Shown here: piece by piece, positions 24,241-48,980 of the stretch
Layout of the letters: each line of letters opens with the position of its first letter
Numbering within the stretch: the stretch's first letter is position 1
DNA from: a bacterium
Lineage (GTDB): Bacteria; Patescibacteriota; Minisyncoccia; UBA6257; UBA9933
Assembly (NCBI GenBank): GCA_021791445.1
Contig: JAJYWO010000002.1
Location: forward strand, 21,757 to 85,756
Length of the DNA stretch: 64,000 nucleotides
Direction: 5' to 3'
Notes under the pieces: model-generated
Database searches by the model: none
What the model was told of the DNA's origin: nothing
The model's input: the letters and a program-made list of their open reading frames with translations, nothing else
Translations under genes and position numbers: made by a program

Positions 24241-24266
24241 ATACCCGATATTGTCGGGTATTTTTA
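24241..24266 (-). terminator. Terminator after dnaJ
   Basis: Hairpin atacccgatattgtcgggtat plus a T-run. Confidence 0.5.
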
Positions 24267-24267
24267 T

Positions 24268-25383: not shown

Positions 25384-25465
25384 CGCAGTTCATAAAGTTA
25401 TAAAGTTATAAAGTTATAAAGTAAAATTTAGAAAACTTTATAACTTTAAAAACATTATAAACTTT

Positions 25466-28277: not shown

Positions 28278-28298
28278 AGTTTTATTTTTATTTTAATT

Positions 28299-28790: not shown

Positions 28791-28864
28791 TGTATAATTA
28801 TAAATATGTTTTCATAAAATATTTATTTTCGACCATTCGCTTTATAAACATTTATCTTATAAAA

Positions 28865-28902
28865 TATAACATTTTATCTACGATCGCAAATAAAATGTTA
28901 TA
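28865..28902. promoter_or_regulatory. 38-bp palindromic operator TATAACATTTTATCTACGATCGCAAATAAAATGTTATA, about 75 nt upstream of grpE
   Basis: Inverted repeat seen in the sequence. It belongs to the four-member family, with the others at 28990, 29688 and 45311. Confidence 0.5.
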
Positions 28903-28989
28903 TTTTAATAATAATATCTATTTTTAATAAATCAATAGTAAATTATATAGATAAAATATAGTTAATTCAATTTTAGAATAAAAATAAAA

Positions 28990-29027
28990 TATAACAAATT
29001 GTTTACGATCGTAAGTAATTTGTTATA
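28990..29027. promoter_or_regulatory. Second palindromic operator TATAACAAATTGTTTACGATCGTAAGTAATTTGTTATA
   Basis: Inverted repeat with a central TTACGATCGTAA. Lies between the regulator stop and grpE. Confidence 0.5.
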
Positions 29028-29038
29028 CAATATTAAAA

Positions 29039-29662
29039 TTATTCTTCAAAATTTTTAAATTTTTCAAATATTCCGTCATCATCTATTTCTCCAATAGTAA
29101 TCATTCTAATACATTGATAGAGATTTTTCCTTAAAATATCCTCATAAACATCTTCTTCAATGGGTCGCTTTCCCATAAAAACACTTCTCTGTATTGGTTG
29201 ATAATTTATTGACAATAATTGAAATCTTAACCAGTCGCGTTCTTTTCTTTTCTTCTCGGGGATATCAAACATCACCATTCTCCATTTACCGTCCCATGTT
29301 TCCCGCTCCGGTTTATTTTCTTTGTTCTTTAAAAAATCGATTATTTTCAAGCCGGCCGAAGTAATATGATATTTCCTGCCTTTTTTCGTTATCAATCCTT
29401 TTTGCTGAAGCCGCCACAGCGTTGTTCGCGCGCTGTTTTTTCTCATATTTTGCAGTTCGTCGTAATAATCCCAAAAATTCCCGAGATTTGCCATTTTGCC
29501 GTAGCTTCTTCCCAAACTATGTCCGCCGGTTTCCAAAATTTCCGAAAGCGCGGCTGTTCCCCTTTCCGCCAGTCCGAAAATCAGGGCCAAGCCGGCCATA
29601 CTGACATTAATCGGCAATTCTTCAACGGTTTTTTTTAGTTGTTTTTTATTTATGCCGGACAT
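29039..29662 (-). CDS. PaaX-like transcriptional regulator (N-terminal wHTH plus PaaX_C-like domain), in the position usually held by hrcA
   Basis: The wHTH region reads LGRSYGKMANLGNFWDYYDELQ...TTLWRLQQKGLI. The C-terminal WDGKWRMVMFDIPE..R..R..LR..L...QRSVFM matches the PaaX C-domain pattern. Confidence 0.55.
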   Translation of the reverse strand: MSGINKKQLKKTVEELPINVSMAGLALIFGLAERGTAALSEILETGGHSLGRSYGKMANLGNFWDYYDELQNMRKNSARTTLWRLQQKGLITKKGRKYHITSAGLKIIDFLKNKENKPERETWDGKWRMVMFDIPEKKRKERDWLRFQLLSINYQPIQRSVFMGKRPIEEDVYEDILRKNLYQCIRMITIGEIDDDGIFEKFKNFEE

Positions 29663-29687
29663 TTATTATTTTTTATTCCGCATTAAA

Positions 29688-29731
29688 AAGTATAACATCT
29701 TACTGCCGATCGGCAATGAAATGTTATACTT
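29688..29731. promoter_or_regulatory. Palindromic operator AAGTATAACATCTTACTGCCGATCGGCAATGAAATGTTATACTT, 26 nt upstream of the regulator gene and divergent from cysS
   Basis: Near-perfect 44-bp palindrome of the same family. Confidence 0.5.
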
Positions 29732-29803
29732 TTTGTATTTTATTAATATCCTTGGAGTTGTCAATAGTTGCGCATAAAGAGGAAATTTAATAGAATTAAC
29801 GCA

Positions 29804-31165
29804 ATGATTAATCTTTATAATACTCTCGCCCGGAAAAAACAGACCTTTAAACCGTTAAGGGGCAAAAATGTCGGAATTTACACTTGCGGACCCACAGTTT
29901 ACAATTTCGCCCATCTTGGAAATTTAAGAACTTATATTTTTGAGGATATTTTGAGGCGCGTTTTAAAATATAACAGCTATAAAGTTAAGCAAATAATGAA
30001 TATAACCGATGTGGAAGATAAAATCATCAAAAAAGCCCAGCAAGAAAAAAAGAATATCAACCAAATTACCAAACCTTACGCGAAAATTTTTCTTGAAGAT
30101 TTGAAGAAATTGAGCATTGAAAAAGCGGAAAAATATCCGCTGGCGACGAAACACATTAAAGAAATGATCGCTTTAATAAGCGGCTTAATAAAAAAAGGCA
30201 TTGCTTATAAAGGAGAAGACGGCTCAATATATTTCAACATTCAAAAATTCAAGAATTACGGCAAACTCTCGCAACTCCAAAAAAGAGAAATTAAAATCGG
30301 CGCAAGAGTGAGCGCTGACGAATACAACAAAGAACAAGCGCAGGATTTTGTTTTATGGAAAACGAAAAAACTAAATGAGCCGTTTTGGAAAAGTCCGTTC
30401 GGCGACGGCCGGCCGGGTTGGCATATTGAATGTTCGGCAATGGCGATGAAATATCTCGGCAAGACCTTTGACATTCACGCCGGCGGCGTTGATTTGATAT
30501 TCCCCCATCATGAAAACGAAATCGCTCAGTCCGAAGCCGCGACCGGAAAAAAATTCGTCAATTACTGGCTGCACGGAGAGCATCTTTTGGTCAATAACGA
30601 AAAAATGTCAAAATCTCTTGGCAATATTTATACTTTGCGCGATTTAGAGCAAAAAAATTTCAATCCCCTTGCCTTTCGCTATCTTGTTTTGACTTCCCAT
30701 TACCGCTCAAAATTGAATTTTACTTGGGAAAGTTTGCAGGCGGCGCAAAATGCGCTAAACAATTTACATAATGAAATGATAATAATTAACGCCGATAAAA
30801 AATCAGCATCAATCAGTGAAAATCAGCGTAAATTAGCGTATGAAAAACAATTTTTAGATGCGATTAATGACGACTTAAACACGCCAAAAGCCATAGCTTT
30901 GGTACGGAAAATTGTTAAAGATAAAAATCTTTCTTCAAACGCCAAAAAAAGCCTTGTTTTAAAACTTGATAAAGCGCTTGGATTGGGGTTGAAAAACGTA
31001 AAATCTGAGAAAATTCCGCTTAAAATCAAACAAATGGCGGATGAACGGGATAAATTAAGAGCAAATAAACAGTTTATCCCCGCCGACCTCTTGCGAAAAA
31101 AAATAGAAGAATTAGGATACATTGTAGAAGACACCGCCGCAGGGCCAAAAATTTTAAGAAAATAA
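29804..31165 (+). CDS. cysS: Cysteinyl-tRNA synthetase
   Basis: MINLYNTL..R start, HLGNLRTY (HIGH) and KMSKS. The ATG at 29804 is preferred over 29768. Confidence 0.9.
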   Translation: MINLYNTLARKKQTFKPLRGKNVGIYTCGPTVYNFAHLGNLRTYIFEDILRRVLKYNSYKVKQIMNITDVEDKIIKKAQQEKKNINQITKPYAKIFLEDLKKLSIEKAEKYPLATKHIKEMIALISGLIKKGIAYKGEDGSIYFNIQKFKNYGKLSQLQKREIKIGARVSADEYNKEQAQDFVLWKTKKLNEPFWKSPFGDGRPGWHIECSAMAMKYLGKTFDIHAGGVDLIFPHHENEIAQSEAATGKKFVNYWLHGEHLLVNNEKMSKSLGNIYTLRDLEQKNFNPLAFRYLVLTSHYRSKLNFTWESLQAAQNALNNLHNEMIIINADKKSASISENQRKLAYEKQFLDAINDDLNTPKAIALVRKIVKDKNLSSNAKKSLVLKLDKALGLGLKNVKSEKIPLKIKQMADERDKLRANKQFIPADLLRKKIEELGYIVEDTAAGPKILRK

Positions 31166-32497
31166 ATGAACATCAAATTGCCTCCGCAAGACATAGAAGC
31201 CGAGCGTTCCGTGTTGGGAGCGCTCATGCTGGACAAAAACGCCATCATCAGAGTGGCGGATTTAATCACAGCCGAAGATTTCTACCAGCCATCGCATTCA
31301 AAAATTTTTAAAGTCATTTCCGATCTTTTTAATAAAAACGAGCCGGTTGATATTTTAAGCGTTACCAACAAATTAAAAGATGGAAAACAATTAGCGGATA
31401 TCGGCGGTTCAAGTTATCTGACGGAGATTGTGAGCGGCGTTCCGACCGCGAGCCATATCGCCCATTACGCGAAAATAATCCGCGACAAAAAAGTTTTGCG
31501 CGAATTGATTACAACTTCTTCTGAAATCGCGGAAAGGGTTTTTGATAGCCAAAAAGATTCCGAAAATCTGCTTGATGAGATAGAACAAAGAATTTTTTCC
31601 ATCGCCCAAAAATCAAATCCGAAAAATTTCATCCACCTAAAAGACGAACTTAAAGACGCTTATGAAAGAATTGAAAAACTGCATCAGGGAGAGAAAGGAT
31701 TGCGCGGCGTGACAACCGGCTTCAGCGAAATAGACCATTATCTTTCCGGACTTCAAAAATCCGATTTGGTGATTCTCGGCGCCAGACCGTCGGTCGGAAA
31801 AACGACTTTTGTCCTTGATATCGCCCGCAACGCGGCCGCGGCCGGACACGCCACGGCAATATTCTCCCTTGAAATGTCCCGCGAACAGATTGTTGACAGA
31901 TTTATTTCATCAGAAGCCAAAGTGCCTTTGTGGCGGCTTAGAACGGGTCGCTTGACTGACGAAATAGACTTCCAGATGATTCAAGAGGCGTTAGACAAAT
32001 TGTCGCAACTGCCGATTTTTATTGACGACACGCCGTCGCCGAATATTCTGCAAATACGAGCAATGGCAAGGCGTTTGCAAGCGGAAAACCCGAATCTCGG
32101 ACTCATTGTTATTGACTATGTCCAACTTGTTATGCCGCGGACCAATTCGGAAAATATGGTTCAGCAATTTACGGAAATCAGCCATGGATTAAAAGCGCTG
32201 GCGAGAGAGCTTAATCTGCCGGTTTTGGCGGTTTCCCAGCTTAACCGCGCTGTTGACCAAAGAGAAGTGAAAATCCCCCGTTTGTCCGACCTTCGCGAAA
32301 CCGGATCTTGGGAACAGGACGCGGATGTTGTGATGTTTATTTACCGTAAAGACCGCGATAAGCTCAATCCCACGCTTGAAGAACAAAATATGGCGGAAAT
32401 TATCATTGCCAAACACAGAAACGGGCCGATTGGTTCGGTGCAGCTGAAATTTGACCCGGAAAAAGTGAGCTTCAGCCAGATAGATAAGCTGCATTAG
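31166..32497 (+). CDS. dnaB: Replicative DNA helicase DnaB
   Basis: N-terminal DnaB domain and Walker A GARPSVGKTTF. Confidence 0.9.
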   Translation: MNIKLPPQDIEAERSVLGALMLDKNAIIRVADLITAEDFYQPSHSKIFKVISDLFNKNEPVDILSVTNKLKDGKQLADIGGSSYLTEIVSGVPTASHIAHYAKIIRDKKVLRELITTSSEIAERVFDSQKDSENLLDEIEQRIFSIAQKSNPKNFIHLKDELKDAYERIEKLHQGEKGLRGVTTGFSEIDHYLSGLQKSDLVILGARPSVGKTTFVLDIARNAAAAGHATAIFSLEMSREQIVDRFISSEAKVPLWRLRTGRLTDEIDFQMIQEALDKLSQLPIFIDDTPSPNILQIRAMARRLQAENPNLGLIVIDYVQLVMPRTNSENMVQQFTEISHGLKALARELNLPVLAVSQLNRAVDQREVKIPRLSDLRETGSWEQDADVVMFIYRKDRDKLNPTLEEQNMAEIIIAKHRNGPIGSVQLKFDPEKVSFSQIDKLH

Positions 32498-32503
32498 CTG
32501 CGC

Positions 32504-32574
32504 TAGCTTCATTAGCTTCGTTAGGTTAAAATTATTTTTCTAAAAGCTAAGGAAGCTAAAAGCTAATGAAGCTA
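32504..32574 (+). promoter_or_regulatory. 15-bp perfect inverted repeat (TAGCTTCATTAGCTT/AAGCTAATGAAGCTA) whose 3' arm contains the recR start codon
   Basis: Seen in the sequence. The arms are 41 nt apart. Additional AGCTAA repeats lie between them. Confidence 0.35.
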
Positions 32575-33207
32575 AAAGTTAAATTGTTGCCTCAATCAAT
32601 TAAAAATTTTATAGACGCTTTCTCGGGTTTGCCGGGAATCGGGCCGCGCCAGGCAACGCGGTTGGCTTTTAAATTGGTGGCCGGCGGAAAAAATAAAATT
32701 GAAGAATTAAGCAGGGCGGTTAGTGAACTAAAAAATCTCAAACTTTGCTCGCAATGCTTTTTTATTCATTCCAATTTTGAAAGTCTTTGCGATATTTGCA
32801 AAAATCCGAACCGCCGAAAAGACATTATAATGATTGTTGAGAAAGAAACCGATGTGATTTCATTGGAACGGCCGAAAAAAATCAACGGCCGCTATCTTGT
32901 TTTAGGAGAATTGGATAAAGCCGGAATTTTGGAAAGCGGGCAAAAACTGCGCTTGAACAATTTGAAAACTTTTATCACTAAGGAATTGGCGGACCCTTCG
33001 GCAGGCTCAGGGCAAGGCAAGGCCGAAGAAATTATAATTGCCACCAATCCCACGACTTACGGCGATTTAAACGCTTCCATCATCGCCAAAGAACTGACGG
33101 GATTCGCCAAAAAAATAACCCGTCTCGGCCGCGGCATCCCGACCGGCGGAGAAATAGAATTCGCGGATGAGGATACTTTAGGAGCGGCGTTGGAGAGAAG
33201 GAATTAA
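32566..33207 (+). CDS. recR: Recombination protein RecR
   Basis: C4 zinc finger CSQC...CDIC plus a Toprim domain. Confidence 0.9.
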   Translation: MKLKVKLLPQSIKNFIDAFSGLPGIGPRQATRLAFKLVAGGKNKIEELSRAVSELKNLKLCSQCFFIHSNFESLCDICKNPNRRKDIIMIVEKETDVISLERPKKINGRYLVLGELDKAGILESGQKLRLNNLKTFITKELADPSAGSGQGKAEEIIIATNPTTYGDLNASIIAKELTGFAKKITRLGRGIPTGGEIEFADEDTLGAALERRN

Positions 33208-33231
33208 AAAAAACCGTCGAAAAGGCGTTTT

Positions 33232-33534
33232 TTACGCGATTTCCACTTCTGTGAACGGCTGTTTGTGGCCTTTTTTCTTGCGATAACGAGTTTTGGAATG
33301 GTATTTGAAGACGATTTTTTTCTTGTCTCTCGCCTGCCTTAATACTTTGGCTTCAACTTTCGCGCCTTCAACATAGGGCGTTCCAATTTTAACGCTATCG
33401 CCGTCAGCCGCGAGCAAAACCTTGTCAAAAACAACTTTGCCGTCTTTTTCAGCGTCCAATTTCTCTATTTTTAATTTTTGGCCGGAAGAAACTTTATATT
33501 GTTTGCCTCCGGTTTGGATGATTGTGAATTCCAT
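33232..33534 (-). CDS. rplU: Ribosomal protein L21
   Basis: MEFTIIQTGGKQYKV. Confidence 0.9.
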   Translation of the reverse strand: MEFTIIQTGGKQYKVSSGQKLKIEKLDAEKDGKVVFDKVLLAADGDSVKIGTPYVEGAKVEAKVLRQARDKKKIVFKYHSKTRYRKKKGHKQPFTEVEIA

Positions 33535-33535
33535 A

Positions 33536-33880
33536 TTAATTAACGGAAATAATAACCGATATCGCTATTAAAATCAAGATGCTGATTACTAAACTGCCAA
33601 AACTAAAAAGATAAGAGAGAAAACGCTGGCGATTATAAAGAAAATCCGCCAGAAAAAAATTCATCAAAATAATGACAAAAGCGGAGAATAAAATGCCGAA
33701 AATATCCGTTTTCCCGCCGAAAAAATCAATTCCTTTGTACGCGTCAAAATGGATAACCAACGGCGAGGGCGTATTTTGCAGCTTCATAAACGCCACAAAA
33801 GATAAAAAAAACAGCGTCAAGAAACTCAACACAAAAACAACTCTTAGATATTTGTCTTTTAATGTGGAATAAAAAAGCAT
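33536..33880 (-). CDS. Hypothetical membrane protein (114 aa)
   Basis: Three hydrophobic helices. Abuts rplU. Confidence 0.4.
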   Translation of the reverse strand: MLFYSTLKDKYLRVVFVLSFLTLFFLSFVAFMKLQNTPSPLVIHFDAYKGIDFFGGKTDIFGILFSAFVIILMNFFLADFLYNRQRFLSYLFSFGSLVISILILIAISVIISVN

Positions 33881-33890
33881 TTATAAAATG

Positions 33891-33962
33891 TGTCCCCACG
33901 AGGAATCGAACCTCGATCTTGGGTTCCGCAAACCCACACTCTATCCATTGAGCTATGAGGAC
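33891..33962 (-). tRNA. tRNA-Arg(GCG), an unusual anticodon
   Basis: Hand-folded. Anticodon stem TGGGT/ACCCA with loop TTGCGGA. Confidence 0.7.
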
Positions 33963-33965
33963 AAA

Positions 33966-34535
33966 TTAAAATCTTATTAATTCCGAAAGCGAATCAGTCA
34001 AAGATTTCGGAAGTTCTTCCTGCGGAGCGAATTCCGCGATAAATCCCTTGATGGCCGGTTCGTCTTTTGGGTAAATGTTGATTTTCAAAAACGGAGATAT
34101 TTTGGCTTTCAGTTTAAGCACCAGTTTTTTATACTCCGCTTCTTCGCCATTCTCGTAGATTTCGGAATGAATGTCAAAGCTTTCCAGATTTTCCATCGGA
34201 TAAAATTTTCTTTTTTCACTGTTCGGCAAACCGATGAATATCCCCTTCTCGTTGATTTTAATTTCCCAAATCGGCGGAAAGCGATTGGATAAATGGTTTA
34301 TTATAAAAAAAGCGATGACAACAAAAACGGCGAACAGAAAATTCTCCTGCCAGATGGAAAAAGCGAACAGGATTATCGCGACAATCAAACTCACCCAAAA
34401 CCACGAAACGTCCTTTGGCCGGTATTCGTATTCCGGAATCTGCCAGGAAATTTCTCCGGATTTTTCCTTCAAATGGCTTGCCCGCTCTTTTTCAATTCGT
34501 ATTGGTTTTTTGTTTCTTAAATCAATTACCGACAT
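33966..34535 (-). CDS. Hypothetical membrane protein. Start trimmed to MSVIDL so it does not overlap tRNA-Ser.
   Basis: Two TM helices then a soluble domain. The longer ORF start would lie inside the tRNA. Confidence 0.4.
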   Translation of the reverse strand: MSVIDLRNKKPIRIEKERASHLKEKSGEISWQIPEYEYRPKDVSWFWVSLIVAIILFAFSIWQENFLFAVFVVIAFFIINHLSNRFPPIWEIKINEKGIFIGLPNSEKRKFYPMENLESFDIHSEIYENGEEAEYKKLVLKLKAKISPFLKINIYPKDEPAIKGFIAEFAPQEELPKSLTDSLSELIRF

Positions 34536-34536
34536 T

Positions 34537-34623
34537 CGGAGAGGGTGGGATTCGAACCCACGGTTCGGTTTCCCGAACAACTTCTTAGCAGGAAGCTGCT
34601 TTCGACCGCTCAGCCACCTCTCC
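34537..34623 (-). tRNA. tRNA-Ser(GCT)
   Basis: Long variable arm. Anticodon loop CTGCTAA. Discriminator G. Confidence 0.85.
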
Positions 34624-34630
34624 AATATTG

Positions 34631-34873
34631 TTATTCTTGAAAAAGATATTTAATTCGTTCTCTTCCTTTCCCTGACTTCAAAAATAATTCTTCTCTTTTG
34701 GCATCTTTCTCTGAAATAAAAGCTTCATAATAAATTAATTCCCAAGGACCATTGTTTTTAGTAAAAATAGAATTGCCGGAATTATGTTCTCTGATTCTTC
34801 GTCTTAAATCATTAGTATAAGCCTTGTATAATTTATTATTTTTTAAACTTTTTAATATATAAACATAATACAT
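34631..34873 (-). CDS. Stand-alone GIY-YIG nuclease (80 aa), immediately upstream of tRNA-Ser
   Basis: YYVYIL...LYKAYTNDLRRRIREHN plus a conserved E and GRE. Confidence 0.75.
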   Translation of the reverse strand: MYYVYILKSLKNNKLYKAYTNDLRRRIREHNSGNSIFTKNNGPWELIYYEAFISEKDAKREELFLKSGKGRERIKYLFQE

Positions 34874-34883
34874 AAAAATTAAT

Positions 34884-34929
34884 ATTACTACTCTCAGCCC
34901 TAGGCTGATCCGCCTCGGGCGGAAGCCAC
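34884..34929 (-). repeat. tRNA-Ser 5'-like fragment (GGAGGCGTGGCT) interrupted by two hairpins, TCCGCC-CGA-GGCGGA and TCAGCC-TAG-GGCTGA, then GGCTGAGAG
   Basis: Minus-strand reading compared with tRNA-Ser GGAGAGGTGGCTGAGCGG. Same architecture as 23706-23756. Confidence 0.45.
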
Positions 34930-34981
34930 GCCTCCAAAAAATCCTTGTAATTATCGCAAATTTCTGATACTTTTACAAGAT

Positions 34982-36430
34982 ATGTCTGAAAATCAAAATA
35001 AAAATTTACTCCTGCGTTCTCCTATTGTGGTGATAATGGGGCATGTTGACCACGGCAAAACCAGTTTGCTGGATTTTATTCGTCGGACAAATATCACTGC
35101 CAAAGAAGCCGGCGGCATTACGCAATCCATCGGCGCGTATGAAATAGAGCACAATTCCAAAAAAATCACATTTATTGACACGCCCGGACACGAGGCGTTT
35201 TCAAAAATGCGCGGACGCGGAGCGAAAGTCGCTGATTTAGCGATTTTAGTGGTAGCGGCTGACGACGGCGTTAAACCGCAAACCAAAGAATCCATTGATA
35301 TAATCAATGAAACAAAAACGCCTTTTATTGTCGCCATCAATAAAATAGACAAACCGAACGCGGATATTGAAAAAACGAAAAATGATTTAATGGCAAACGG
35401 CGTTTTGCTTGAAGGATACGGCGGCAATGTGAGTTGGCAAGCGATTTCCGCCAAAACCGGCCAGGGCGTCAATGAATTGCTTGATTTAATTTTATTGGCC
35501 GCGGAAATGGAGAATTTGACTTACAATCCCGAAGAAAACGCGAGTGGTGTGATTATTGAAGCCAAAGCCGACAGCCGAAGCGGAATAATCGTTTCGGCAA
35601 TCGTCAAAAACGGCGTTCTTAAAACCGGCGACAAAATCGCCACTCCCAGCGCTTGCGGAAAAATAAAAAATCTGGAAAATTTCCTCGGCAAAAAAGTCGC
35701 CGACCTCTCCCCTTCCAGTCCGGCGATGATTCTCGGATTTGAAACTCTACCGCAAATCGGCGAAGAATTTGTAAGCGGGAATATTGAATTGGCTGAAATA
35801 AAAATGGGAACAACGGGAAAAATTCCAACGCAATTTGTTTCTGAAAAAGAAGGATTGATGACTCTTAATTTAATTTTAAAAGCCGATGTTTCCGGTTCGC
35901 TTGAAACCTTGTCTGAAATAATCAAAACACTCGGAAGCGAAACGGTGAAAATCAATATTATCAACGAATCAATCGGCGAAATAACCGACGGCGACATCAA
36001 AAGCGCGGTTTCCAGCAACGCTATAATCGCCGGCTTCCGCGTCAAAACGAACAAAATCGCGGAAAATTTGGCAAAAGCGCAAAACGCAAAAATCATTTTG
36101 TCGGAAATAATTTACGAACTGGTTGAAAAAATACAGGACGAAGTAAAACTTTTGGAAAAACCTTTGCCGCAGGGAGAATTGGAAGTTTTAAAAATTTTCA
36201 ATCAAAAAGGAAAAAAACAATTAGTTGGAGGAAAAGTTATCGCGGGAAAAATAAAAAACAACAGCCGCTTGAAAATTCTGCGCGACAATAATGAAATCGG
36301 CAGCGGTAAAATCGCCAGTTTGAAGAAAATAAAACAAGAAGTCAATGAAGTTCTTCTTAATGAAGAATGCGGGCTTATCTTTGAATCGGATATCGCCGTA
36401 AACGCCGGCGACCGCTTGATATGGCAGTAA
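34982..36430 (+). CDS. infB: Translation initiation factor IF-2, short form lacking the N-terminal region
   Basis: G domain VVIMGHVDHGKTSLLD, DTPGHEAF and NKID. Confidence 0.85.
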   Translation: MSENQNKNLLLRSPIVVIMGHVDHGKTSLLDFIRRTNITAKEAGGITQSIGAYEIEHNSKKITFIDTPGHEAFSKMRGRGAKVADLAILVVAADDGVKPQTKESIDIINETKTPFIVAINKIDKPNADIEKTKNDLMANGVLLEGYGGNVSWQAISAKTGQGVNELLDLILLAAEMENLTYNPEENASGVIIEAKADSRSGIIVSAIVKNGVLKTGDKIATPSACGKIKNLENFLGKKVADLSPSSPAMILGFETLPQIGEEFVSGNIELAEIKMGTTGKIPTQFVSEKEGLMTLNLILKADVSGSLETLSEIIKTLGSETVKINIINESIGEITDGDIKSAVSSNAIIAGFRVKTNKIAENLAKAQNAKIILSEIIYELVEKIQDEVKLLEKPLPQGELEVLKIFNQKGKKQLVGGKVIAGKIKNNSRLKILRDNNEIGSGKIASLKKIKQEVNEVLLNEECGLIFESDIAVNAGDRLIWQ

Positions 36431-36452
36431 TTGTGAAATAAAATAAGCCTGT

Positions 36453-36524
36453 GGCCAGATGGCGAAGAGGTAACGCGGCGGTCTGCAAAACCGCTATGCG
36501 AGGGTTCGAATCCCTCTCTGGCCT
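36453..36524 (+). tRNA. tRNA-Cys(GCA)
   Basis: Anticodon loop CTGCAAA. Discriminator U73. Confidence 0.8.
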
Positions 36525-36526
36525 AT

Positions 36527-36590
36527 TTATAAAAGGCGCTGGGCGATTCCGCCCCAGGCCTCCAAGCTTAAAGGCGCTTTTTTATTTAAT
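36527..36590 (+). terminator. GC-rich hairpins followed by a T-run, after tRNA-Cys
   Basis: CTGGGCG..CGCCCCAG and GGCGCTTTTTTATTT. Confidence 0.4.
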
Positions 36591-36596
36591 AAAAAT

Positions 36597-38009
36597 ATGA
36601 CTAAGAAAACAAAAATAATCGCCACCATCGGGCCGGCGACTGAAAATAAAATAATGATGGAAAAAATGGCGCTGGCGGGAATGAACGTCATCCGTCTCAA
36701 TTTTTCCCACGGTTCGTACGCGGAACACAAAAACAGAATCAATCTGGCGCGTTTTGTTTCGCAAAAAATCAACAAGCCGATTGCGGTTTTACAGGATTTG
36801 TCCGGCCCCAAAATAAGAATCGGCGATTTTTATCAGGAAAACGTTGAATTGAAAAACGGCAAGAAATTTGTTTTAACGACCGAAAAAATCATTGGCGACG
36901 AAAATAAGGTTTTTATAAATTACAAAAATATCGCCGATGAAATTGAAAAAGGCGCGACGATTTTGCTTGATGACGGAAAAGTGGAATTGCGGGTTGAAAA
37001 AATTTCCGGCAATAAAATAATCTGCCGCGTCATCATCGGCGGAAAAATAAAAGGTAGAAGAGGCGTCAATTTCCCGGGAAGCTGTTTGAAAATAAGCTCT
37101 CTTACGGAAAAAGACAAAGAAGACATAAAATTCGGAATTAAAAATAAAGTTGATTTTATGGCGATTTCTTTTGTGCGAACGGTGAATGATATTTTGGAAT
37201 TAAAGAATATTTTAAAAAGAGCGAGGGCGGACATTAAAGTTATCGCCAAAATAGAAACGCAGGAAGCGGTTGAAAACATAGACGAAATAATAAAAGAAGC
37301 GTACGGAATAATGGTGGCGCGCGGAGATTTGGCGGTGGAAGTCGGCGCGGAACAAGTGCCGATTCTCCAAAAAATGATTGTCAAAAAATGCAACGACGCG
37401 GGCAAGCCGGTTATTATCGCCACGCAAATGCTGGAATCAATGATTAAAAATCCCGTGCCGACGCGAGCCGAAGTCAATGACATCGCCAATGCCATTTTAG
37501 ACGGCGCGGACGCGATAATGCTTTCCGAAGAAACCACTTTGGGGGATTTCCCGCTGAAAACAATTGAAGTGATGGCGCGGGTAGCCAGACACACGGAAGT
37601 TAATTTCAATTACGAAAAATTGCTGGAAAACGGCCATTTGACATCTAAAATCATTACCAATTCCGTAAGCTACGCCGTGGCGAATGTCGCTCACAATGTC
37701 GGCGCGAAAGCGATTATCGCGCTCACTGAAAGCGGCGGCACGGCGAAAATGATTTCCCGCTATCGCCTAAAACAGCCGATTCTGGCTTTGACGCCGAATT
37801 CAAAAACATACAATCGCTTGGCGTTAAGTTTTGGCTGCTATCCGTATTTGATAAATCAATTCAAAGACATTTCCGAAGTCGTTGAAACCGCGAAAAAGAT
37901 GGTTTTGAAAAATAAGCTGGCGAAAAAAGGCGAAAAAATCGTGATTTCCGCCGGCATTCCTTTTGGAAAATCCGGCAGCACCAATCTTTTAATCGCGGAA
38001 ATTGTGTAA
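36597..38009 (+). CDS. pyk: Pyruvate kinase
   Basis: TKIIATIGPA...NFSHG and the MVARGDLAVE signature. Confidence 0.9.
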   Translation: MTKKTKIIATIGPATENKIMMEKMALAGMNVIRLNFSHGSYAEHKNRINLARFVSQKINKPIAVLQDLSGPKIRIGDFYQENVELKNGKKFVLTTEKIIGDENKVFINYKNIADEIEKGATILLDDGKVELRVEKISGNKIICRVIIGGKIKGRRGVNFPGSCLKISSLTEKDKEDIKFGIKNKVDFMAISFVRTVNDILELKNILKRARADIKVIAKIETQEAVENIDEIIKEAYGIMVARGDLAVEVGAEQVPILQKMIVKKCNDAGKPVIIATQMLESMIKNPVPTRAEVNDIANAILDGADAIMLSEETTLGDFPLKTIEVMARVARHTEVNFNYEKLLENGHLTSKIITNSVSYAVANVAHNVGAKAIIALTESGGTAKMISRYRLKQPILALTPNSKTYNRLALSFGCYPYLINQFKDISEVVETAKKMVLKNKLAKKGEKIVISAGIPFGKSGSTNLLIAEIV

Positions 38010-38044
38010 TATAATAAAAAAAACGCCCGGGTGGCGGAATGGTA

Positions 38045-38124
38045 TACGCACACGACTTAAAATCGTGAACCGTAAGGTGTGTGGGTTCGAGTCCCACCCC
38101 GGGCAAATCCAATAGCGTGTCGCT
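38045..38124 (+). tRNA. tRNA-Leu(TAA)
   Basis: Long variable arm. Anticodon loop CTTAAAA. Confidence 0.85.
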
Positions 38125-38148
38125 TGATGATTTAATGAAATAACGGCT

Positions 38149-40239
38149 ATGGAATTTTTAACCTCGCTTTTACCTAAAATTCAGCACCTTGGTGCGCTCG
38201 GGTATTGGATAGTATTGCTTATTTCTCTGGCGGAATCGCTGCCATTTATTGGCTTAATCATCCCCGGCGCTATTTTAGCCGGACTTTTTGGTTTTTTCTC
38301 CGCGCAGGGATATCTTGATATCGGAAACCTGATTTTGTTTTCTGCCATAGGCGCAATACTCGGAGATAACATTAGTTATTATCTCGGCACACGGGGTACG
38401 AAACTTTTCCGTCAGGAAAATAAAATACTCAAATTGAGCCATTTAGAAAGCGGCGAGCGATTTTTCAAAAAGCATGGCAATAAAAGCATTTTCTTGGGAA
38501 GGTTTATCGGCCCGCTTCGGCCCATCATTCCGTTTGTCGCGGGACTTTTCCGAATGGATAGAAAAGCTTTTCTGTTTTGGAACATTATCAGCGGTGTTCT
38601 TTGGGCGATTTCTTTTTTGCTTCTTGGCTATTTCTTTGGCGGCGCATTAAACGCGATTGGGATTTGGTCAAGCCGCGTGGGGTTATTTGTTCTTGCAGTG
38701 GTGATTTCTGTAATCATCATTCGTATTCTCGTAAAATACGCGCCGCCGTTTTTTGCCTTTCTCAAATCGATTTCTCTGTCTATAAAAGAAGCTTTTATTC
38801 TCAATCCCGACATCAAAAATTTTATTGTCAAACACCCGATACTTTCAAACTTTGTCCGCAACAGATTGAATAAAGAGAGATTTTCCGGCTTGTCTCTTAC
38901 ATTGCTTGGCGTAGCGTTTGTGTATGTTCTTGTTCTGTTTTTCGGCATTATTGAAAACATCATCACTTCAGATGTTATTGTTGCAGCAGATACGCGCGTG
39001 GCAAATCTTTTAGCCGCTTTTCGCGATGTCGAGCTAATAAGAATTTTTACATGGATAACGCTGCTGGGGAAATGGCAAATTATTATAAGTTCGGCGATCG
39101 TTCTTTCCGCAATTCTTTGGTTATGGCGAAAAAGATTGTATCTGCTCCCTTTTTGGGTAACGATTGTCGGAAGCGAACTTTTTAATTCTCTCGGAAAGTT
39201 GGCATTCCATCGCGCGCGACCCGGTGTTGCTTTTTATGCCGAGGACACTTTTTCGTTCCCCAGCGGGCACGCAACGATTTCTGTCGCGTTTTATGGCTTT
39301 CTCGCATATATTTTGTTTAGGCAAATCAAAAAATGGAAGTACAAAATCAACGCGCTTTTTTTCGGAATTGTAATTATTCTCGCAATCGGCTTAAGCCGTC
39401 TGTATCTCGGAGTCCATTTTTTGAGTGATGTATGGGGCGGTTATCTTTTGGGCGCACTTTGGCTTTTAATAGGAATATCTATCTCGGAATGGTTGCGCCG
39501 CCGCAAGCCGTCGCCGTCATTTACTCCGGCACAGCAAGCAAAAGTTTTTGCGTCAATCCTGATTCTTGCCGAAATTATTTTTTATGTTAATTTTGCTCTT
39601 CGTTATAATCCGCCTGTCGTCCGCCAAGAAACGACAAATGTGTTTGTGGTTGCCAATGTGTTAAGGGAATTTTCCGACAAAAATATCCCGCGTTTTACCG
39701 AAACTCTAATTGGCGATACGCAAGAGCCGTTAAGTTTTATCGTGATTGCCGAAAATGACCAGAAAATTTTTGGTGCGATGCGAAAGGCGGGATGGTATCG
39801 CGCTGATACCGCAACGTTTGCTTCTGTTGCCAAGCTTGCGAAATCGGCAATTTTAAATAAAAACTACCCGACCGCGCCGATGACCCCGTCATTTTGGAAC
39901 GCCAAAGTGCATGATTTTGGTTTTGAAAAACCGACCGAAACACAAAGCGTACGCGAGCGGCATCACGCGCGATTTTGGCGAACGCCATTTGAGATGCAAA
40001 ACGGCAGGCGCGTATATATCGGAACGGCAAGCGAAGATGTTGGCTTGAAGTGGTTTATCACTCATATGATCAAACCGGATATTGATACGGAGCGAGAGCT
40101 TTTGTTTTCCGATTTGGAAAATACCGGTTTTATCCTCAATTTTGCAAAAAAAAAATTTGTTGAGCCGACGCTCGGCAAGAATTTTTCAGGGGACCAATTT
40201 TTCACTGACGGCGAGGTGTATATTATTAATCTGAAATAA
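38149..40239 (+). CDS. Membrane protein fusing a DedA/SNARE-associated domain, a PAP2 phosphatase domain, and a roughly 230-aa C-terminal extracytoplasmic domain
   Basis: DedA motif in LAESLPFIGLIIPG. PAP2 motifs RP, PSGH and SR..LGVHFLSD. Confidence 0.65.
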   Translation: MEFLTSLLPKIQHLGALGYWIVLLISLAESLPFIGLIIPGAILAGLFGFFSAQGYLDIGNLILFSAIGAILGDNISYYLGTRGTKLFRQENKILKLSHLESGERFFKKHGNKSIFLGRFIGPLRPIIPFVAGLFRMDRKAFLFWNIISGVLWAISFLLLGYFFGGALNAIGIWSSRVGLFVLAVVISVIIIRILVKYAPPFFAFLKSISLSIKEAFILNPDIKNFIVKHPILSNFVRNRLNKERFSGLSLTLLGVAFVYVLVLFFGIIENIITSDVIVAADTRVANLLAAFRDVELIRIFTWITLLGKWQIIISSAIVLSAILWLWRKRLYLLPFWVTIVGSELFNSLGKLAFHRARPGVAFYAEDTFSFPSGHATISVAFYGFLAYILFRQIKKWKYKINALFFGIVIILAIGLSRLYLGVHFLSDVWGGYLLGALWLLIGISISEWLRRRKPSPSFTPAQQAKVFASILILAEIIFYVNFALRYNPPVVRQETTNVFVVANVLREFSDKNIPRFTETLIGDTQEPLSFIVIAENDQKIFGAMRKAGWYRADTATFASVAKLAKSAILNKNYPTAPMTPSFWNAKVHDFGFEKPTETQSVRERHHARFWRTPFEMQNGRRVYIGTASEDVGLKWFITHMIKPDIDTERELLFSDLENTGFILNFAKKKFVEPTLGKNFSGDQFFTDGEVYIINLK

Positions 40240-41980
40240 AGCCGGCGATTGATAAAGAGGTTTGCGGTTTGGCGGATACCGGAAAAATTGTTCTCGCCAC
40301 CACTCGTTCGCCTTCATTCAATCCAAAAATAATTTCCGTGAATTCGTCGCTGGCGATTCCGATTTCCACTTTTTGCTTTCTCGGCGCTTTGTCTGAAACA
40401 AATCCTTGCCTGTCTCTTGAACTTGCCAACGGCCCGTCGAATATCTCAACATAATGCGAATCCCCCTGAGATTTTACGGCGCTGTTCGGAATAATAAGAA
40501 CATCTTGTTTTGTGTCCGTAATTATGGAAGCGCTCATGCTCATTCCGGGTTTTATCAATTCTTCTTGCGAATCAAAAATTATTTTTACGGTATAAGAAAC
40601 GACTCCGAAAGAAATTTCGCCAATAGTGTCAATTTCGCTCACTTCGCCGTTAACGCTTAAGTCCGGGATCGCGTCAAAAGTCAGAACCGCTTTTTGTCCG
40701 GTTTTTATTTTAGCGGCGTCAATTTCATTCAAACTTATCTCGGCAATATGGTAAGTCGTCACCATGGTCGCCGCCGCGCTGTTAACGGAAATTGTGTCTC
40801 CTTGTTTAAAATTTATTTTCGCCGCAATGCCGTCAAAAGGCGCGCGAATGGAATAATCGTTAAGATTTTCCTTGGCATCCAAAAGCGCGTTTTCTTTCTG
40901 CTGAACCGCCAATTCCTGCGCCTGAATATCCAACTCATCCGCTCCGGCTTTAAGTTTGGCAAGCGATTCAATTTTTTCGGCGATTGTCCTATCGGCATTA
41001 GCAATGGCTGTTTTGGAATCTTCAATAGTTTGCTTAATCGCCAAAAGATTCAATAAATGCGAATTTGCTTTTGAAGTGTAGGTGTTAAGCGAACTTTGAT
41101 GCGCCGCTACGGTTGAAGGCGCGGTAATACTATGCAGAGTCATCACATCTTTTACAAAATCAATGAAATTATTGGAGGTTTTTACGGCGTCTGCGATTGT
41201 TTTCGCGGTGCCGTAAGTTTCCATAATTAAAGATTCCAAAGTTTGCGCGTCGGAAGTTCTGGAAACAGCTTTGTAATTTTCAAAATTTTTATTATATTGC
41301 TGCCGCGCCAAAGTGTATGCCTGATTAACGCCGATTTTATACGTGTCCGTTTTTTGCTGTTCCCAAGTTGAAGACTGGCTGGCGTACCAATCTATATTCC
41401 ATTGAGAAACGGATATTGTGCTTTTGTATAAAATATCCTCCAAGCCGGTTATTATGGTCGGGAAATCAAGAAAAGCATTGGAAACCGCGTTAAATCCGTC
41501 GTCATACGCTTTCTGCAAATCGTTTTCCGCTTTTCGTTTTGATTCTTTTGCCTGCGCCAGAGCGTTTTCCGCCTGTAAGATAGAAAGGGTGTCGGCCGGT
41601 TTTTTCAATTTTTCCAAAGCCAGTTTCGCGGAATCAAGATTCGTTTGGGCGTCGCGAACCGCTTTTTGAGCGTCGCGGCTGCCAATTTGAAGAAGTAAAT
41701 CTCCAGTTTTTACTTCTTGGCCGTTAGCGACCGCCACAAAAATCACATCTCCGGAAACTTTTGATTTGACGTCTATTTGGTTAAAAGCGGAAATTTGTCC
41801 GGTTCCGGAAATGGAAGCCGTAATCGTTCCCTTTTCCGCCCGCGCCAAAATATAAACCGTCTCTTCGCCTTTTTTAAAAACCAAAGAATAAATTCCATAT
41901 CCGCCTCCCAAAACCGCCAAGGCGATTATCAATGAAACAATTTTTCGTTTAATAATAAATTTTATAATTTTTTTTAACAT
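40226..41980 (-). CDS. HlyD-family periplasmic adaptor (membrane fusion protein)
   Basis: N-terminal TM segment, long coiled coils, and a C-terminal beta-barrel region. No partner pump is adjacent. Confidence 0.55.
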   Translation of the reverse strand: MLKKIIKFIIKRKIVSLIIALAVLGGGYGIYSLVFKKGEETVYILARAEKGTITASISGTGQISAFNQIDVKSKVSGDVIFVAVANGQEVKTGDLLLQIGSRDAQKAVRDAQTNLDSAKLALEKLKKPADTLSILQAENALAQAKESKRKAENDLQKAYDDGFNAVSNAFLDFPTIITGLEDILYKSTISVSQWNIDWYASQSSTWEQQKTDTYKIGVNQAYTLARQQYNKNFENYKAVSRTSDAQTLESLIMETYGTAKTIADAVKTSNNFIDFVKDVMTLHSITAPSTVAAHQSSLNTYTSKANSHLLNLLAIKQTIEDSKTAIANADRTIAEKIESLAKLKAGADELDIQAQELAVQQKENALLDAKENLNDYSIRAPFDGIAAKINFKQGDTISVNSAAATMVTTYHIAEISLNEIDAAKIKTGQKAVLTFDAIPDLSVNGEVSEIDTIGEISFGVVSYTVKIIFDSQEELIKPGMSMSASIITDTKQDVLIIPNSAVKSQGDSHYVEIFDGPLASSRDRQGFVSDKAPRKQKVEIGIASDEFTEIIFGLNEGERVVARTIFPVSAKPQTSLSIAGFISD

Positions 41981-42054
41981 ATTTTCCGCTTACCTTTTAA
42001 ACAATTATATCAAAAATATTGCAAAAAATCTTTTCGCATGTTCTAATAACCTTT

Positions 42055-42306
42055 TTTTTATTACGCCCCTCTCCAAAACTTTTCATAGCGAACATCGCGC
42101 AAGGTTAAGGATAAATCAATGAGCGGAATGAAGGATTTTTTGACTATAAATTTAATGGTCGGAAAACTCCTGACATAATTTTACGAAGTAAAATTATGGC
42201 GGAGGGTAAACGGGCACCGTTAAATTTATTCAAAAAATCAGATTGGAGCGATTTGATTTATTTAACCTGAGCGTCGTGAGCGAGAAAAGTTTTAGAGAAG
42301 GGCGCA
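42055..42306 (-). repeat. MITE-like element, copy B. Inverted relative to copy A, with the same terminal repeats and a different core that contains hairpin CATAATTTTAC-TTCG-GTAAAATTATG.
   Basis: Both ends match 22065-22322 in reverse complement. Abuts the stop codon of the SIMPL gene. Confidence 0.55.
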
Positions 42307-42311
42307 CCTCC

Positions 42312-43094
42312 CTACTCTATCTCGTATCTTAAAATTACATTGACCTTTATTTCCTGCGAACCGGGTTCTATTTGCGGGGCCGGCAAAGAAGTTTCCATCG
42401 CGGTTTTCGCAAAACCGCCGATTCCATATCCGTAAATCGGCTCCGAATAGCCGCCCTCGTCAATGGAAAGCAATTTCCCGACTTTAAAATCCCCCGCTTC
42501 GGCAATCAATTTCGCCCGCTCTTTAGCTTTTTTAATCGCTTCTTCGCGCGCTTTATCTTGAATAACTGATAAATCGTCAATGTTGAAAGAAAGCTGGGAA
42601 ACCGAATTGGCGCCGTTTTGGACAACTCCCGCCATAATATCGCCTATTTTTTCAAAATTTCTTATTTTTACGGCAATCGTTTGGGTAATCGTATATCCGA
42701 CGATTTCAGCCGGCGGACACGGCTCTGCCGCTTCCCGCGAAATCGGACAAGAATAATACTGGTACCGCGGGTCAAGATTGTAATTTTGCGTTTTAATGTC
42801 TTTATCCACGACTCCGCTTAATTTCGCGAAATTGATTATTTTATTCGTTTTGTCGGTATTTTCCTTTTGCAATTTAGCGATATCTTTGCCGCCCTCGGTT
42901 ATCACGCTAAAAGTGAATTGCGCGATATCCGGAATCGCCGTTATTTTACCCTCTCCGCTCGCTGAAAAACTGCGGAAAGAAGACGGCTGAATAGATTTTG
43001 AATAACTGTTCACGTACGACATTACCGACAAAGCGAAAATAAACAAAACCGCGATTATGGCAATACCGAGATAATTTTTTATTTTTATATTCAT
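42312..43094 (-). CDS. SIMPL/DUF541 (BP26-like) periplasmic protein
   Basis: N-terminal signal/TM segment. Family-level resemblance only. Confidence 0.45.
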   Translation of the reverse strand: MNIKIKNYLGIAIIAVLFIFALSVMSYVNSYSKSIQPSSFRSFSASGEGKITAIPDIAQFTFSVITEGGKDIAKLQKENTDKTNKIINFAKLSGVVDKDIKTQNYNLDPRYQYYSCPISREAAEPCPPAEIVGYTITQTIAVKIRNFEKIGDIMAGVVQNGANSVSQLSFNIDDLSVIQDKAREEAIKKAKERAKLIAEAGDFKVGKLLSIDEGGYSEPIYGYGIGGFAKTAMETSLPAPQIEPGSQEIKVNVILRYEIE

Positions 43095-43927: not shown

Positions 43928-45304
43928 TTATTCTCCTTTTATAACCGCCACGGGAACCAAGCGCGCGACTTTTTTTGACAATCCGGCTTGATGGGTAATT
44001 TCAACGACTTCGTCTATATTTTTGTACGCCTGCGGCGCTTCTTCGGCGATGCCGCGCATTGAATAACATTTCACTATGATATTTTTACTTCTTAAATTTT
44101 CGACAATCTCTTTCCCGGATAATGTTTTTATCGCCTGATGCCGGCTCATCATTCTGCCCGCGCCATGAGCCGAAGAATAAAACGCTTCCTTGCCGCTTTC
44201 TTGGCCGATTAAAACATAAGAAGCCGTTCCCATTGAACCCGGAATCAAAACCGGCTGGCCGGGGAAAGCCCGTGTGGCGCCCTTGCGATGAACTATTAAA
44301 TTATTCTCAATTTTAGCGATATTATGCGCGACATCGTATAAAACACTCAACCCTCGGCCATTTAACGCTTTATCCCACACTTGCCGAACATAATGAGTAA
44401 TCATTTGCCTGTTCGCCCAGGCGAAATTCGCTCCGCAAGCCATTGCCTTGAAAAATCTTTGGCCTTCCGCGGAATTAAACGGCGCGCAAGCCAATTCCCT
44501 ATCCGGCAATTCAATGCCGTATTTCGGCATCACTTGAACCATTAAGCGAATATAATCCGTGGCAATCTGATGCCCTAAACCGCGGCTGCCGGTGTGAATC
44601 ATTACAACGACTTGATTCTCAAATAAGCCGAATTTTTTGGCGGTTTCTTTATCGTATATTTTATCAACTTTCTGAATTTCCAAAAAATGATTGCCCGAGC
44701 CGAGCGTGCCGACTTGATCTCGGCCGCGATTTTTCGCAATTTGCGAAACTTCTAAAGCGTCCGCCCAATCCAATTTGCCGTTAGATTCGCAATTTTCAAT
44801 ATCCTGTTTTTCGCCGAATCCTCGTCTTACAATTTCCTGCGCTCCGTTTTCCAAAATTTTATCCAATTCGGAAACGTTTAATTTCTGCAGATGCCCCCTG
44901 CCTAATCCTGATGGCACAGTTCTTTGGATTTCCGTTGCCAAAGCGTCAAGATGATTTTTGATTTCATCAATAAAAATATTTGATTTCAATAATCTCACCC
45001 CGCAATTCTGATCATAACCCACGGCGCCCGGAGAAATTACGCCACCCTCAACGCGTGTGGCGAAAACGCCGCCGATAGGACTGCCATATCCTTCATGCGC
45101 GTCCGGCATCACAATCGCGTATTTTTCAATCCCCGGAAGCGTCGTCAAATTAACCAACTGCTCCAAGCTTCTGTCCTGAAAAATATATTCCAGCATTTTT
45201 TCGCTGGCGTAAATTCTTGCCGGCACTTTCATATCGCTCCGAAAAGATTTGGGGATTTCCCATAAATAATCGCTGATTTTAATTAAATCTTGTTTATTTA
45301 TCAT
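43928..45304 (-). CDS. rtcB: RNA 3'-phosphate ligase RtcB
   Basis: Conserved RtcB histidine-containing segments: HTGSRGLGHQ, HNIAKIE and SAHGAGR. Confidence 0.9.
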   Translation of the reverse strand: MINKQDLIKISDYLWEIPKSFRSDMKVPARIYASEKMLEYIFQDRSLEQLVNLTTLPGIEKYAIVMPDAHEGYGSPIGGVFATRVEGGVISPGAVGYDQNCGVRLLKSNIFIDEIKNHLDALATEIQRTVPSGLGRGHLQKLNVSELDKILENGAQEIVRRGFGEKQDIENCESNGKLDWADALEVSQIAKNRGRDQVGTLGSGNHFLEIQKVDKIYDKETAKKFGLFENQVVVMIHTGSRGLGHQIATDYIRLMVQVMPKYGIELPDRELACAPFNSAEGQRFFKAMACGANFAWANRQMITHYVRQVWDKALNGRGLSVLYDVAHNIAKIENNLIVHRKGATRAFPGQPVLIPGSMGTASYVLIGQESGKEAFYSSAHGAGRMMSRHQAIKTLSGKEIVENLRSKNIIVKCYSMRGIAEEAPQAYKNIDEVVEITHQAGLSKKVARLVPVAVIKGE

Positions 45305-45310: not shown

Positions 45311-45356
45311 AAAGTATAACATTTTGTTGTCGATCGACAACAAAATGTTATACTTT
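45311..45356. promoter_or_regulatory. 46-bp perfect palindrome AAAGTATAACATTTTGTTGTCGATCGACAACAAAATGTTATACTTT, 6 nt upstream of the rtcB ATG
   Basis: Same family as the grpE and regulator operators. No Shine-Dalgarno sequence lies between it and the ATG. Confidence 0.55.
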
Positions 45357-45378
45357 TCGCAATTTATAATTATTATTC

Positions 45379-48547: not shown

Positions 48548-48605
48548 TTTAATAGTGTTATTTACACAGGAAACATAGTCGAATTTCTGAATAAAAAATA
48601 AACAT

Positions 48606-48806
48606 ATGAACGGAACTATTAAAAAATTGATTACGGACAAGGGATTTGGATTCATTTCTCGCGAAGGCGAAGCAAAAGATCTCTTTTTCCATTCCAATGA
48701 ATTAATTGGAGTGACATTTGACGAACTTAAAGAGGGCGATGCCGTCACCTTTGAAGTCGTTGATGGCGAAAAAGGCCCGAGCGCCAAAAACGTGTCGCGC
48801 GCTTAA
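48606..48806 (+). CDS. cspA: Cold-shock protein (CspA family)
   Basis: GFGFI (RNP1) and FFH (RNP2). 66 aa. Confidence 0.9.
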   Translation: MNGTIKKLITDKGFGFISREGEAKDLFFHSNELIGVTFDELKEGDAVTFEVVDGEKGPSAKNVSRA

Positions 48807-48821
48807 GCGTAACATTTTAAA

Positions 48822-48850
48822 AACCGCCCTTTATCGGGGCGGTTTTTTAT
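48822..48850 (+). terminator. cspA terminator
   Basis: CCGCCCTTTATCGGGGCGG followed by TTTTTTATTT. Confidence 0.6.
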
Positions 48851-48949
48851 TTAAAAAATATCGGAATTTCCAGAGCATCGTCATAATTTCTTTGCTTATG
48901 TTTTTTTAACCAAGTCATTGAACAATTCCATAGAATTGTTCAATAAATC

Positions 48950-48980
48950 AAAAACCTCCTGATTATCAGGAGGTTTTTAT
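48950..48980 (-). terminator. Terminator downstream of the intron-containing tRNA
   Basis: AAACCTCCTGATTATCAGGAGGTTT hairpin with T-runs on both strands. Confidence 0.5.

Follow-up and report, generated by a model that had tools for sequence, protein, structure and literature searches.

Inverted hairpin-forming repeats bracket a 19.7-kb segment of a Candidatus Wolfebacteria-like genome

Two intergenic elements in opposite orientation, A and B, were characterized in a 64,000-nt stretch of bacterial DNA, hereafter called the window. They probably belong to an intergenic repeat that is non-coding, forms hairpins and is present in three or more copies in a genome of Candidatus Wolfebacteria-like Parcubacteria (CPR), a placement based on homolog names. 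The repeat would be a non-autonomous mobile element of the MITE/REPIN/ERIC kind. Its copies inserted recently, immediately downstream of stop codons and in spacers that were very short, and in related families paired changes have preserved the hairpin. CPR (Patescibacteria) have small genomes that are commonly held to be poor in mobile DNA; here, several hairpin families fill spacers that are just 16-31 nt long in relatives. A full-text literature search found no description of such elements in this lineage; the type of element is ordinary, and the lineage is new for it.

RESULTS

Copies A and B share their arms and differ in their cores

The sequence-only reading of this DNA had placed one copy of an inverted, MITE-like pair at 42055-42306 and its partner 19.7 kb away, with parB, the chaperone operon, cysS, dnaB, recR, infB and pyk in between. 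The inverted pair was found at that place, with essentially the same boundaries for copy B (Table 1) and a weak similarity that continues for 9 nt past it, down to 42055. The separation (19,760 nt, from 22303 to 42064) and the list of intervening genes were also correct. A repeat search of the window returned two arm pairs, one of 65 nt with 95% complementarity (22055-22119 and 42241-42305) and one of 68 nt with 93% complementarity (22233-22300 and 42066-42133). The 5′ arms of A and B are identical over at most 47 consecutive nt, and the 3′ arms over at most 37. The description of A and B as two copies thus holds for the arms (65-68 nt, 93-95%) but not for the cores of ~110 nt, which are unrelated. 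The A/B alignment detected no similarity between the two cores, homology being confined to both ends, and no other copy of the A core was present in any fetched sequence.

The A/B similarity could also have arisen by chance or from an assembly error, for instance the collapse or duplication of a repeat; nothing speaks for this beyond the general risk of metagenome assembly. However, each arm matched with a BLAST E-value of ~2e-24, and arm probes of 32-34 nt matched these two sites only, where 0 matches were expected from shuffled sequence. Furthermore, both loci were base-for-base identical in independent assemblies (NCBI, ENA and Logan), on the basis of which we reject this explanation as extremely improbable.

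The genes upstream of A and B are each on the strand of their own element. Copy A begins 10 nt past the relA/spoT stop codon and copy B 6 nt past that of the SIMPL/DUF541 gene; at its other end, 83 nt separate B from the start of the HlyD-like gene. The last relA codons (AAGTTTTAGGAGGG, 22015-22039) are complementary to the outer A 5′ arm (22060-22084) and so resemble the 3′ end of A. These codons are relA's own and also occur in the relative L085; insertion might favour targets that resemble the element's ends, or the mRNA might have an alternative pairing here.

Table 1. Elements, their parts and the neighbouring genes. Positions refer to the window unless a contig is given; the strand of an element or part is its own orientation.
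Feature	Position	Strand	Description
Copy A, whole element	22055-22303	plus	249 nt
A core	22120-22232	plus	113 nt; hairpin closed by GCCCCGCACCTTTTC / GAAAAGGTGCGGGGC
Copy B, whole element	42064-42305	minus	242 nt
B 5′ arm	42241-42305	minus	GC clamp GCGCCCTTCTCT, then AAAACTTTTC, then TCGCTCACGACGCTCAGGTTAAATAAATCAAATCGCTCCAATC; 95% identical to A 22055-22119
B core	42134-42240	minus	107 nt; self-contained hairpin; common to copy C, unrelated to A core
B 3′ arm	42064-42133	minus	CTTCATTCCGCTCATTGATTTATCCTTAACCTTGCGCGATGTTCGCTATGAAAAGTTTTGGAGAGGGGCG; 93-94% identical to A 22233-22303
Copy C	L083 9273-9507		Other contig of MAG GCA_023474725.1; between UPF0102 gene and 105-aa ORF + folD
Element X	22308-22487	minus (sense)	180-nt rod hairpin in relA-parB spacer; fold z -9.7
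Element Y	8232-8386	plus	Hairpin starting at stop codon of ORF 7472-8239
Element Z1	60842-60931	minus	Hairpin in 23S-5S spacer; sense orientation of rRNA
relA/spoT	20332-22044	plus	Upstream of A; Pfam HD_4, RelA_SpoT, TGS, ACT
parB	22493-23554	minus	Convergent with relA; Pfam ParB_N, HTH_ParB, ParB_C
HlyD-family adaptor gene	40226-41980	minus	Downstream of B; Pfam HlyD_D23, HlyD_3
SIMPL/DUF541 gene	42312-43094	minus	Upstream of B; Pfam SIMPL

Each copy folds into one rod hairpin with an exchangeable tip

Copies A and B, 242-249 nt long and without an ORF, each fold into a single rod hairpin (-100 kcal/mol and z -9.9 for A; -91.9 kcal/mol and z -8.9 for B). When folded as RNA, the rods gave z-scores of -8.3 to -9.9 on either strand, and a comparison of sense and antisense folding energies did not favour the sense strand. 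Copy C, described below, was folded as DNA on the sense strand only and gave z -11.1. The rods of A and B are closed by a basal clamp, GCGCCC../..GGGGYG, above which stands an A-run/T-run base (AAAACTTTTC ... GAAAAGTTTT). The arms are conserved and their pairing is imperfect (5′ TCGCTCACGACGCTCAGGTTAAATAAATCAA; 3′ TTGATTTAT..TTAACCTTGCGCGATGTTCGCTATG), with a bubble of 12 x 13 nt that has a near-identical word on either strand (CTCCAATC and TTCAATCC; TCCAATC / TTCAATC). The tip of the rod is the core, a self-contained apical hairpin that is exchangeable among copies, and the terminal inverted repeat CTCYAAAACTTTTC is found at both ends of A, B and C.

The apex of the B core (CCATAATTTTAC TTCG GTAAAATTATG, 42170-42200) closely resembles a small hairpin at 15705-15728 in the tRNA-Ile/tRNA-Val spacer.

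No Rfam family was found for the elements at gathering or E-value thresholds, where the only models to match, weakly and at scores well under the threshold, were long-hairpin models of plant microRNAs. An intrinsic terminator was rejected because the U-tract signature is missing; the 3′ arm is followed by GTAAATAAAA in A and by TAATAAAAAAAA in B. A terminator scan at the element ends also found none beyond chance.

A third copy, mosaic modules and empty sites in relatives

The core of copy C is that of B with one difference, and its arms are 96-98% identical to the A and B arms. Its ends, which are AT-rich (TTTTCTCC ... GGAGAAAA), take the place of the GC clamp, and it has a perfect 18-bp repeat, TTTTCTCCAAAACTTTTC. 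Comparison of the clamp in A and B with that in C showed five pairs changed on both sides. The modules group the copies in conflicting ways, in that the clamp is common to A and B and not to C, whereas the core is common to B and C and not to A, indicating exchange between copies or module replacement.

To the 448 nt of the relA-parB spacer in the window correspond 31 nt in L085 (RelA 83% identical) and 16 nt in L096 (RelA 75% identical). The UPF0102-folD spacer, which holds copy C in L083, measures 20 nt in L082 (FolD 96% identical), and copy B is absent from the SIMPL-HlyD spacer of L094. As the closest relatives have empty spacers at the orthologous positions, A, B and C inserted recently. 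With regard to target duplications, TA is present on both sides of A and not of B, CATT maybe flanks C, and the relatives' spacers are too diverged to align.

Copy C also lies within a block of ~740 nt (L083 9263-9995) that comprises the copy, a promoter, the 105-aa ORF of unknown family and a terminator. This block is missing at position 1250 of L082, the strain with the 96% identical FolD, and TATTTAA is found on both flanks. The 105-aa ORF beside C showed no similarity to a 105-aa ORF near relA.

Comparison with known repeat systems

The term "MITE-like" applies in the broad sense, since the elements are short and non-coding, have terminal inverted repeats, occur in at least three copies and are missing from the relatives' spacers; size, terminal inverted repeats and dispersed copies with filled and empty sites are those of classical MITEs. 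However, no transposase was seen: the 64-kb window and ~60 kb of the organism's other contigs contained no transposase, RAYT or recombinase gene. For prokaryotic MITEs, a 3′-UTR location, effects of RNase III/E and nesting or clustering have been documented (PMC10969869; PMC2649163).

REPINs have conserved ends, a hairpin-forming spacer and frequent compensatory changes, and insertions of one REPIN within or next to another occur (PMC3116915). Like these RAYT/TnpAREP-mobilised elements, A, B and C have inverted conserved ends and a less conserved hairpin spacer and are extragenic. In contrast, they are ~250 nt long, compared with ~70-110 nt for REPINs, they are known in three copies rather than hundreds and no RAYT was seen in the available sequence. 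In addition, REPIN arms are short REP palindromes preceded by GTAG, whereas the arms of A, B and C are without GTAG and are not palindromic in themselves. By the structure of their arms, which carry no GTAG-REP, the elements fall outside the REP/REPIN class.

The ERIC/IRU and Correia (CREE) elements, 100-250 nt long, are palindromic with imperfections; they are intergenic and transcribed, often lie at gene 3′ ends, fold in the mRNA and influence its processing by RNase III/E (PMC10969869; PMC2649163). A, B and C are likewise imperfect palindromes at gene 3′ ends, but they have no sequence similarity to ERIC or Correia, belong to a CPR lineage and have no evident IHF site or promoter function. 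The TA duplication of Correia elements has no consistent counterpart in A, B and C. ERIC size variants exist through internal insertions or deletions. Mosaic modules and mixed small repeats in one spacer (A with X, and X with W in L094; see below) are reminiscent of BIMEs and of pneumococcal BOX/RUP/SPRITE (PMC10969869), although the modules described here are nested along one rod hairpin and not placed side by side.

Several other candidates were rejected. Integron attC sites measure 57-141 nt, compared with ~245 nt here, the flanks are core genes and there is no integrase; in addition, the order of the attC boxes (R''-L''...L'-R', RYYYAAC...GTTRRRY) is reversed, the 5′ arm containing GTTAAAT and the 3′ arm TTAAC. 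The arms gave no match to parS. For 6S RNA, Y RNA (considered because RtcB is nearby), retron msr/msd and TIGR arrays, the defining sequence order, partner gene or Rfam match was missing.

No copies outside this organism were found in the public collections scanned, and the known copies number three. Public genome contigs gave 21 matches to a 19-mer, all of them chance matches in GC-rich genomes, but this 19-mer was poorly placed, just beyond the break point of short-read contigs. Metagenome contigs gave 0 matches to a 20-mer and 39 matches to an 18-mer, which BLAST showed to be chance matches. Three exact-word scans of viral contigs returned 0, 0 and 2 chance matches, and a distant BLAST search of phage and plasmid records returned no match. 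Similarly, nhmmer profiles of the arms, run on every CPR locus that was fetched, revealed no additional copies. Sliding-window folding was too coarse for listing elements, and hairpin detection by self-BLAST missed known ones.

Related hairpin families keep their pairing

Rod hairpins of other families are present in the window (Table 1) and in L094. Element X has the minus strand as its sense strand and therefore follows the parB stop codon. It is 86-90% identical to L094 9766-9950, at a different locus after the HlyD gene. Between these two members, 9 of the 60 predicted pairs are changed on both sides and 0 are broken. The X arms are distantly similar to the A arms (z 4.8 in sense versus 1.7 in antisense), and the 5′ arm of X contains GTAG and its 3′ arm CTAC, in asymmetric positions. 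The HlyD-ABC transporter spacer that holds the X copy in L094 (9756-10170) is 415 nt long and has two rod hairpins, the second being W; in L095 (1597-1599), the same spacer is 3 nt long.

The Z family comprises Z1, Z2 (L094 7843-7948, in the SIMPL-HlyD spacer) and Y. Z1 and Z2 are related with an E-value of 8e-11, and the similarity of the Y arms to Z1 and Z2 gave z-scores of 6.5 and 9.8, respectively. An internal motif is invariant between Z1 and Z2 (TTCTTCAACCCGCTCACG and CTGCGCTTCCGTTTAGGTTTCAGAA on its 5′ and 3′ strands, respectively), whereas the basal and apical helices differ in sequence and are still paired. Eight of the 32 pairs in this family are changed on both sides, with 0 broken. 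The pattern of A versus B, in which conserved arms surround an exchangeable apical hairpin, recurs in Z1 versus Z2. The arm similarity between A and Z was not significant.

Relative to the adjacent upstream gene or rRNA, eight of nine elements are in sense orientation; the exception is W in L094, which appears antisense. Given the small count, this bias is suggestive only. A and X are 5 nt apart in opposite orientations, each in the sense of its own gene, indicating that the bias goes with transcription rather than with replication. No usable signal for the direction of replication came from GC skew. If the sense bias and the preserved pairing hold genome-wide, the elements would offer a tractable example, from an uncultured lineage, of mobile modules of RNA structure that shape 3′ ends.

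These observations raise the question of whether the elements are primarily functional structured RNAs, acting as modules of the upstream transcript for 3′-end processing, termination or stability, with the hairpin kept by RNA selection and spread being secondary. Compensated pairs with none broken in the X and Z families across species are consistent with this explanation, as is the asymmetric internal motif of Z1 and Z2, which is invariant though the flanking helices differ. The sense orientation of eight of nine elements points the same way, but the count is small and W is apparently antisense. Z1 lies inside the rRNA operon transcript. However, the orthologous sites of the closest relatives are without the elements, indicating that no gene depends on them. 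Furthermore, the folding energy has no strand preference, the C-like variant on the MAG contig L080 has uncompensated changes in the core apex, and Rfam has no match. We consider a primarily RNA-based role rather unlikely.

We tentatively raise the possibility, itself somewhat doubtful, that A/B/C, X and Y/Z are one undescribed superfamily of mobile rod hairpins in Wolfebacteria-like CPR that combines all of the following features. Its members may have a conserved asymmetric internal motif (TTTTC..CGCTCACG on the 5′ strand and TGCGC....GAAAA on the 3′ strand) between freely exchangeable basal and apical helices. The hairpin may be kept by selection across species, and insertion may occur directly after stop codons in sense orientation. 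If this is true, the elements would be a mobile, modular 3′-end RNA or single-strand-DNA module, and their arms would be hotspots for module shuffling and chromosomal rearrangement.

For A, B and C, the preferred reading remains that of a non-autonomous intergenic repeat. Such an element would be co-transcribed with its upstream gene, and the hairpin would therefore come to lie at the 3′ end of the mRNA. By analogy with Correia and ERIC elements, it may block read-through or serve as a substrate for a double-strand RNase. An enzyme encoded elsewhere, with the folded single strand as its target, would mobilise the element. The arms would incidentally provide short substrates for homologous recombination; such recombination has probably moved modules from copy to copy and may at times rearrange the chromosome.

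Inversion of the segment between A and B

The sequence-only reading had also proposed that A and B could mediate inversion of the segment between them, and had pointed to invertible-promoter switching in some bacteria. Inversion is possible in principle, but the homology consists of two ~65-nt arms and no second orientation has been demonstrated. In inversions mediated by IS elements or rRNA operons, inverted homologous sequences also bracket the segment, but that homology extends over kilobases, compared with 65-68 nt per arm here. Promoter switching is inapplicable, and an inverton was rejected, because the segment comprises 19.7 kb of housekeeping genes, with no recombinase gene nearby and no recombinase domain in the window.

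That the A/B pair drives a real, polymorphic 19.7-kb inversion, extending from parB to the HlyD-like gene and produced by RecA-dependent recombination between the arms, seems quite unlikely to us. Although recA, ruvC and recR are present, the arms are just 65-68 nt long with at most 47 consecutive identical bases. A comparison of synteny, which had been named as a check, also spoke against inversion: the relatives without the repeat (L085, L096 and L094) share the orientation of the window, and their relA-parB and SIMPL-HlyD junctions are unchanged, an outcome that the sequence-only reading had listed as refuting inversion. The window junctions are also found in the k=141 MEGAHIT contigs L070, L073 and L076 and in the MAG contigs L022/L071 and L027/L075. 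All k=141 and MAG contigs that span A or B have the parental A/B arrangement.

Logan contigs, assembled with k=31, stop 38-48 nt into the arms, as expected of a dispersed repeat. The sole exception to the parental arrangement is L072 (Logan SRR22746143_81484, k=31), which has an exact A x B recombinant junction. It runs from the parB flank through the outer end of A (CACCCCTCCTCC), a 37-nt shared block and the B-specific GGAT into the B core and the B 5′ arm, and is thus the exact product of a crossover in the 3′ arms. However, blocks of 37-47 identical bases are unresolvable in a k=31 graph, in which a chimeric path uses genuine k-mers only. Every 31-mer of the L072 path is also in the parental genome, and L072 may therefore be an assembly-graph chimera. 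The reciprocal relA-HlyD junction was not found among the 7 relA and 10 HlyD contigs that were read.

Junctions between B and C were found in both reciprocal forms. The MAG contig L030 runs from SIMPL through B into the right flank of C, and L080, a MAG contig of the same accession series, runs from UPF0102 through the C-like element into the right flank of B. The switch in L030 occurs within ≤41 nt, so that this contig is a chimera only if k was below ~45. The left side of L080 is ~97% identical to L083, whereas 2.07 kb on the right match the window at 100%; this contrast suggests a chimera between strains. Both contigs may be chimeras. Recombination at these repeats is plausible, and the mosaic modules, which imply earlier exchange among copies, argue that it occurred in the past; an A-B inversion is not demonstrated.

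In practical terms, such repeats break short-read assemblies and can yield chimeric or recombinant junctions in MAGs. If it exists, a 20-kb invertible segment would matter for strain-level genome plasticity.

Other repeats and insertions

Near-perfect palindromes of ~46 bp (TATAACA...GTCGATCGAC...TGTTATA) were found at 28861-28923, 28986-29048, 29687-29749 and 45311-45373 of the window, at 2355-2407 of L030 and at ~10835-10880 and 12549-12608 of L083. Some surround a PaaX-like regulator gene and the grpE-dnaK-dnaJ operon, and others precede RtcB or follow folD. These palindromes look like candidate operator sites of one regulator. RtcB itself is intact in the window (458 aa; compare ~45035-45072) and is split into 53 + 368 aa by a short replaced stretch in MAG GCA_023474725.1 (L027 881-934).

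A free-standing GIY-YIG ORF (23769-24032) lies between partial duplicates of tRNA-Lys (23710-23762, 24154-24206 and 24188-24232) and adjoins an intact tRNA-Lys (24065-24136); it looks like an insertion into a tRNA gene. A direct repeat of 50 nt with 94% identity (7384-7433 and 8768-8817) brackets a PD-(D/E)XK-like ORF (7472-8239), element Y and a small minus-strand ORF, and it may stem from duplication of a promoter region or mark where an inserted block begins and ends. Finally, a sub-threshold match to the cspA thermoregulator (32.5 bits, with a threshold of 78) was found at 48585-48850, upstream of a terminator-like pair at 48818-48979.
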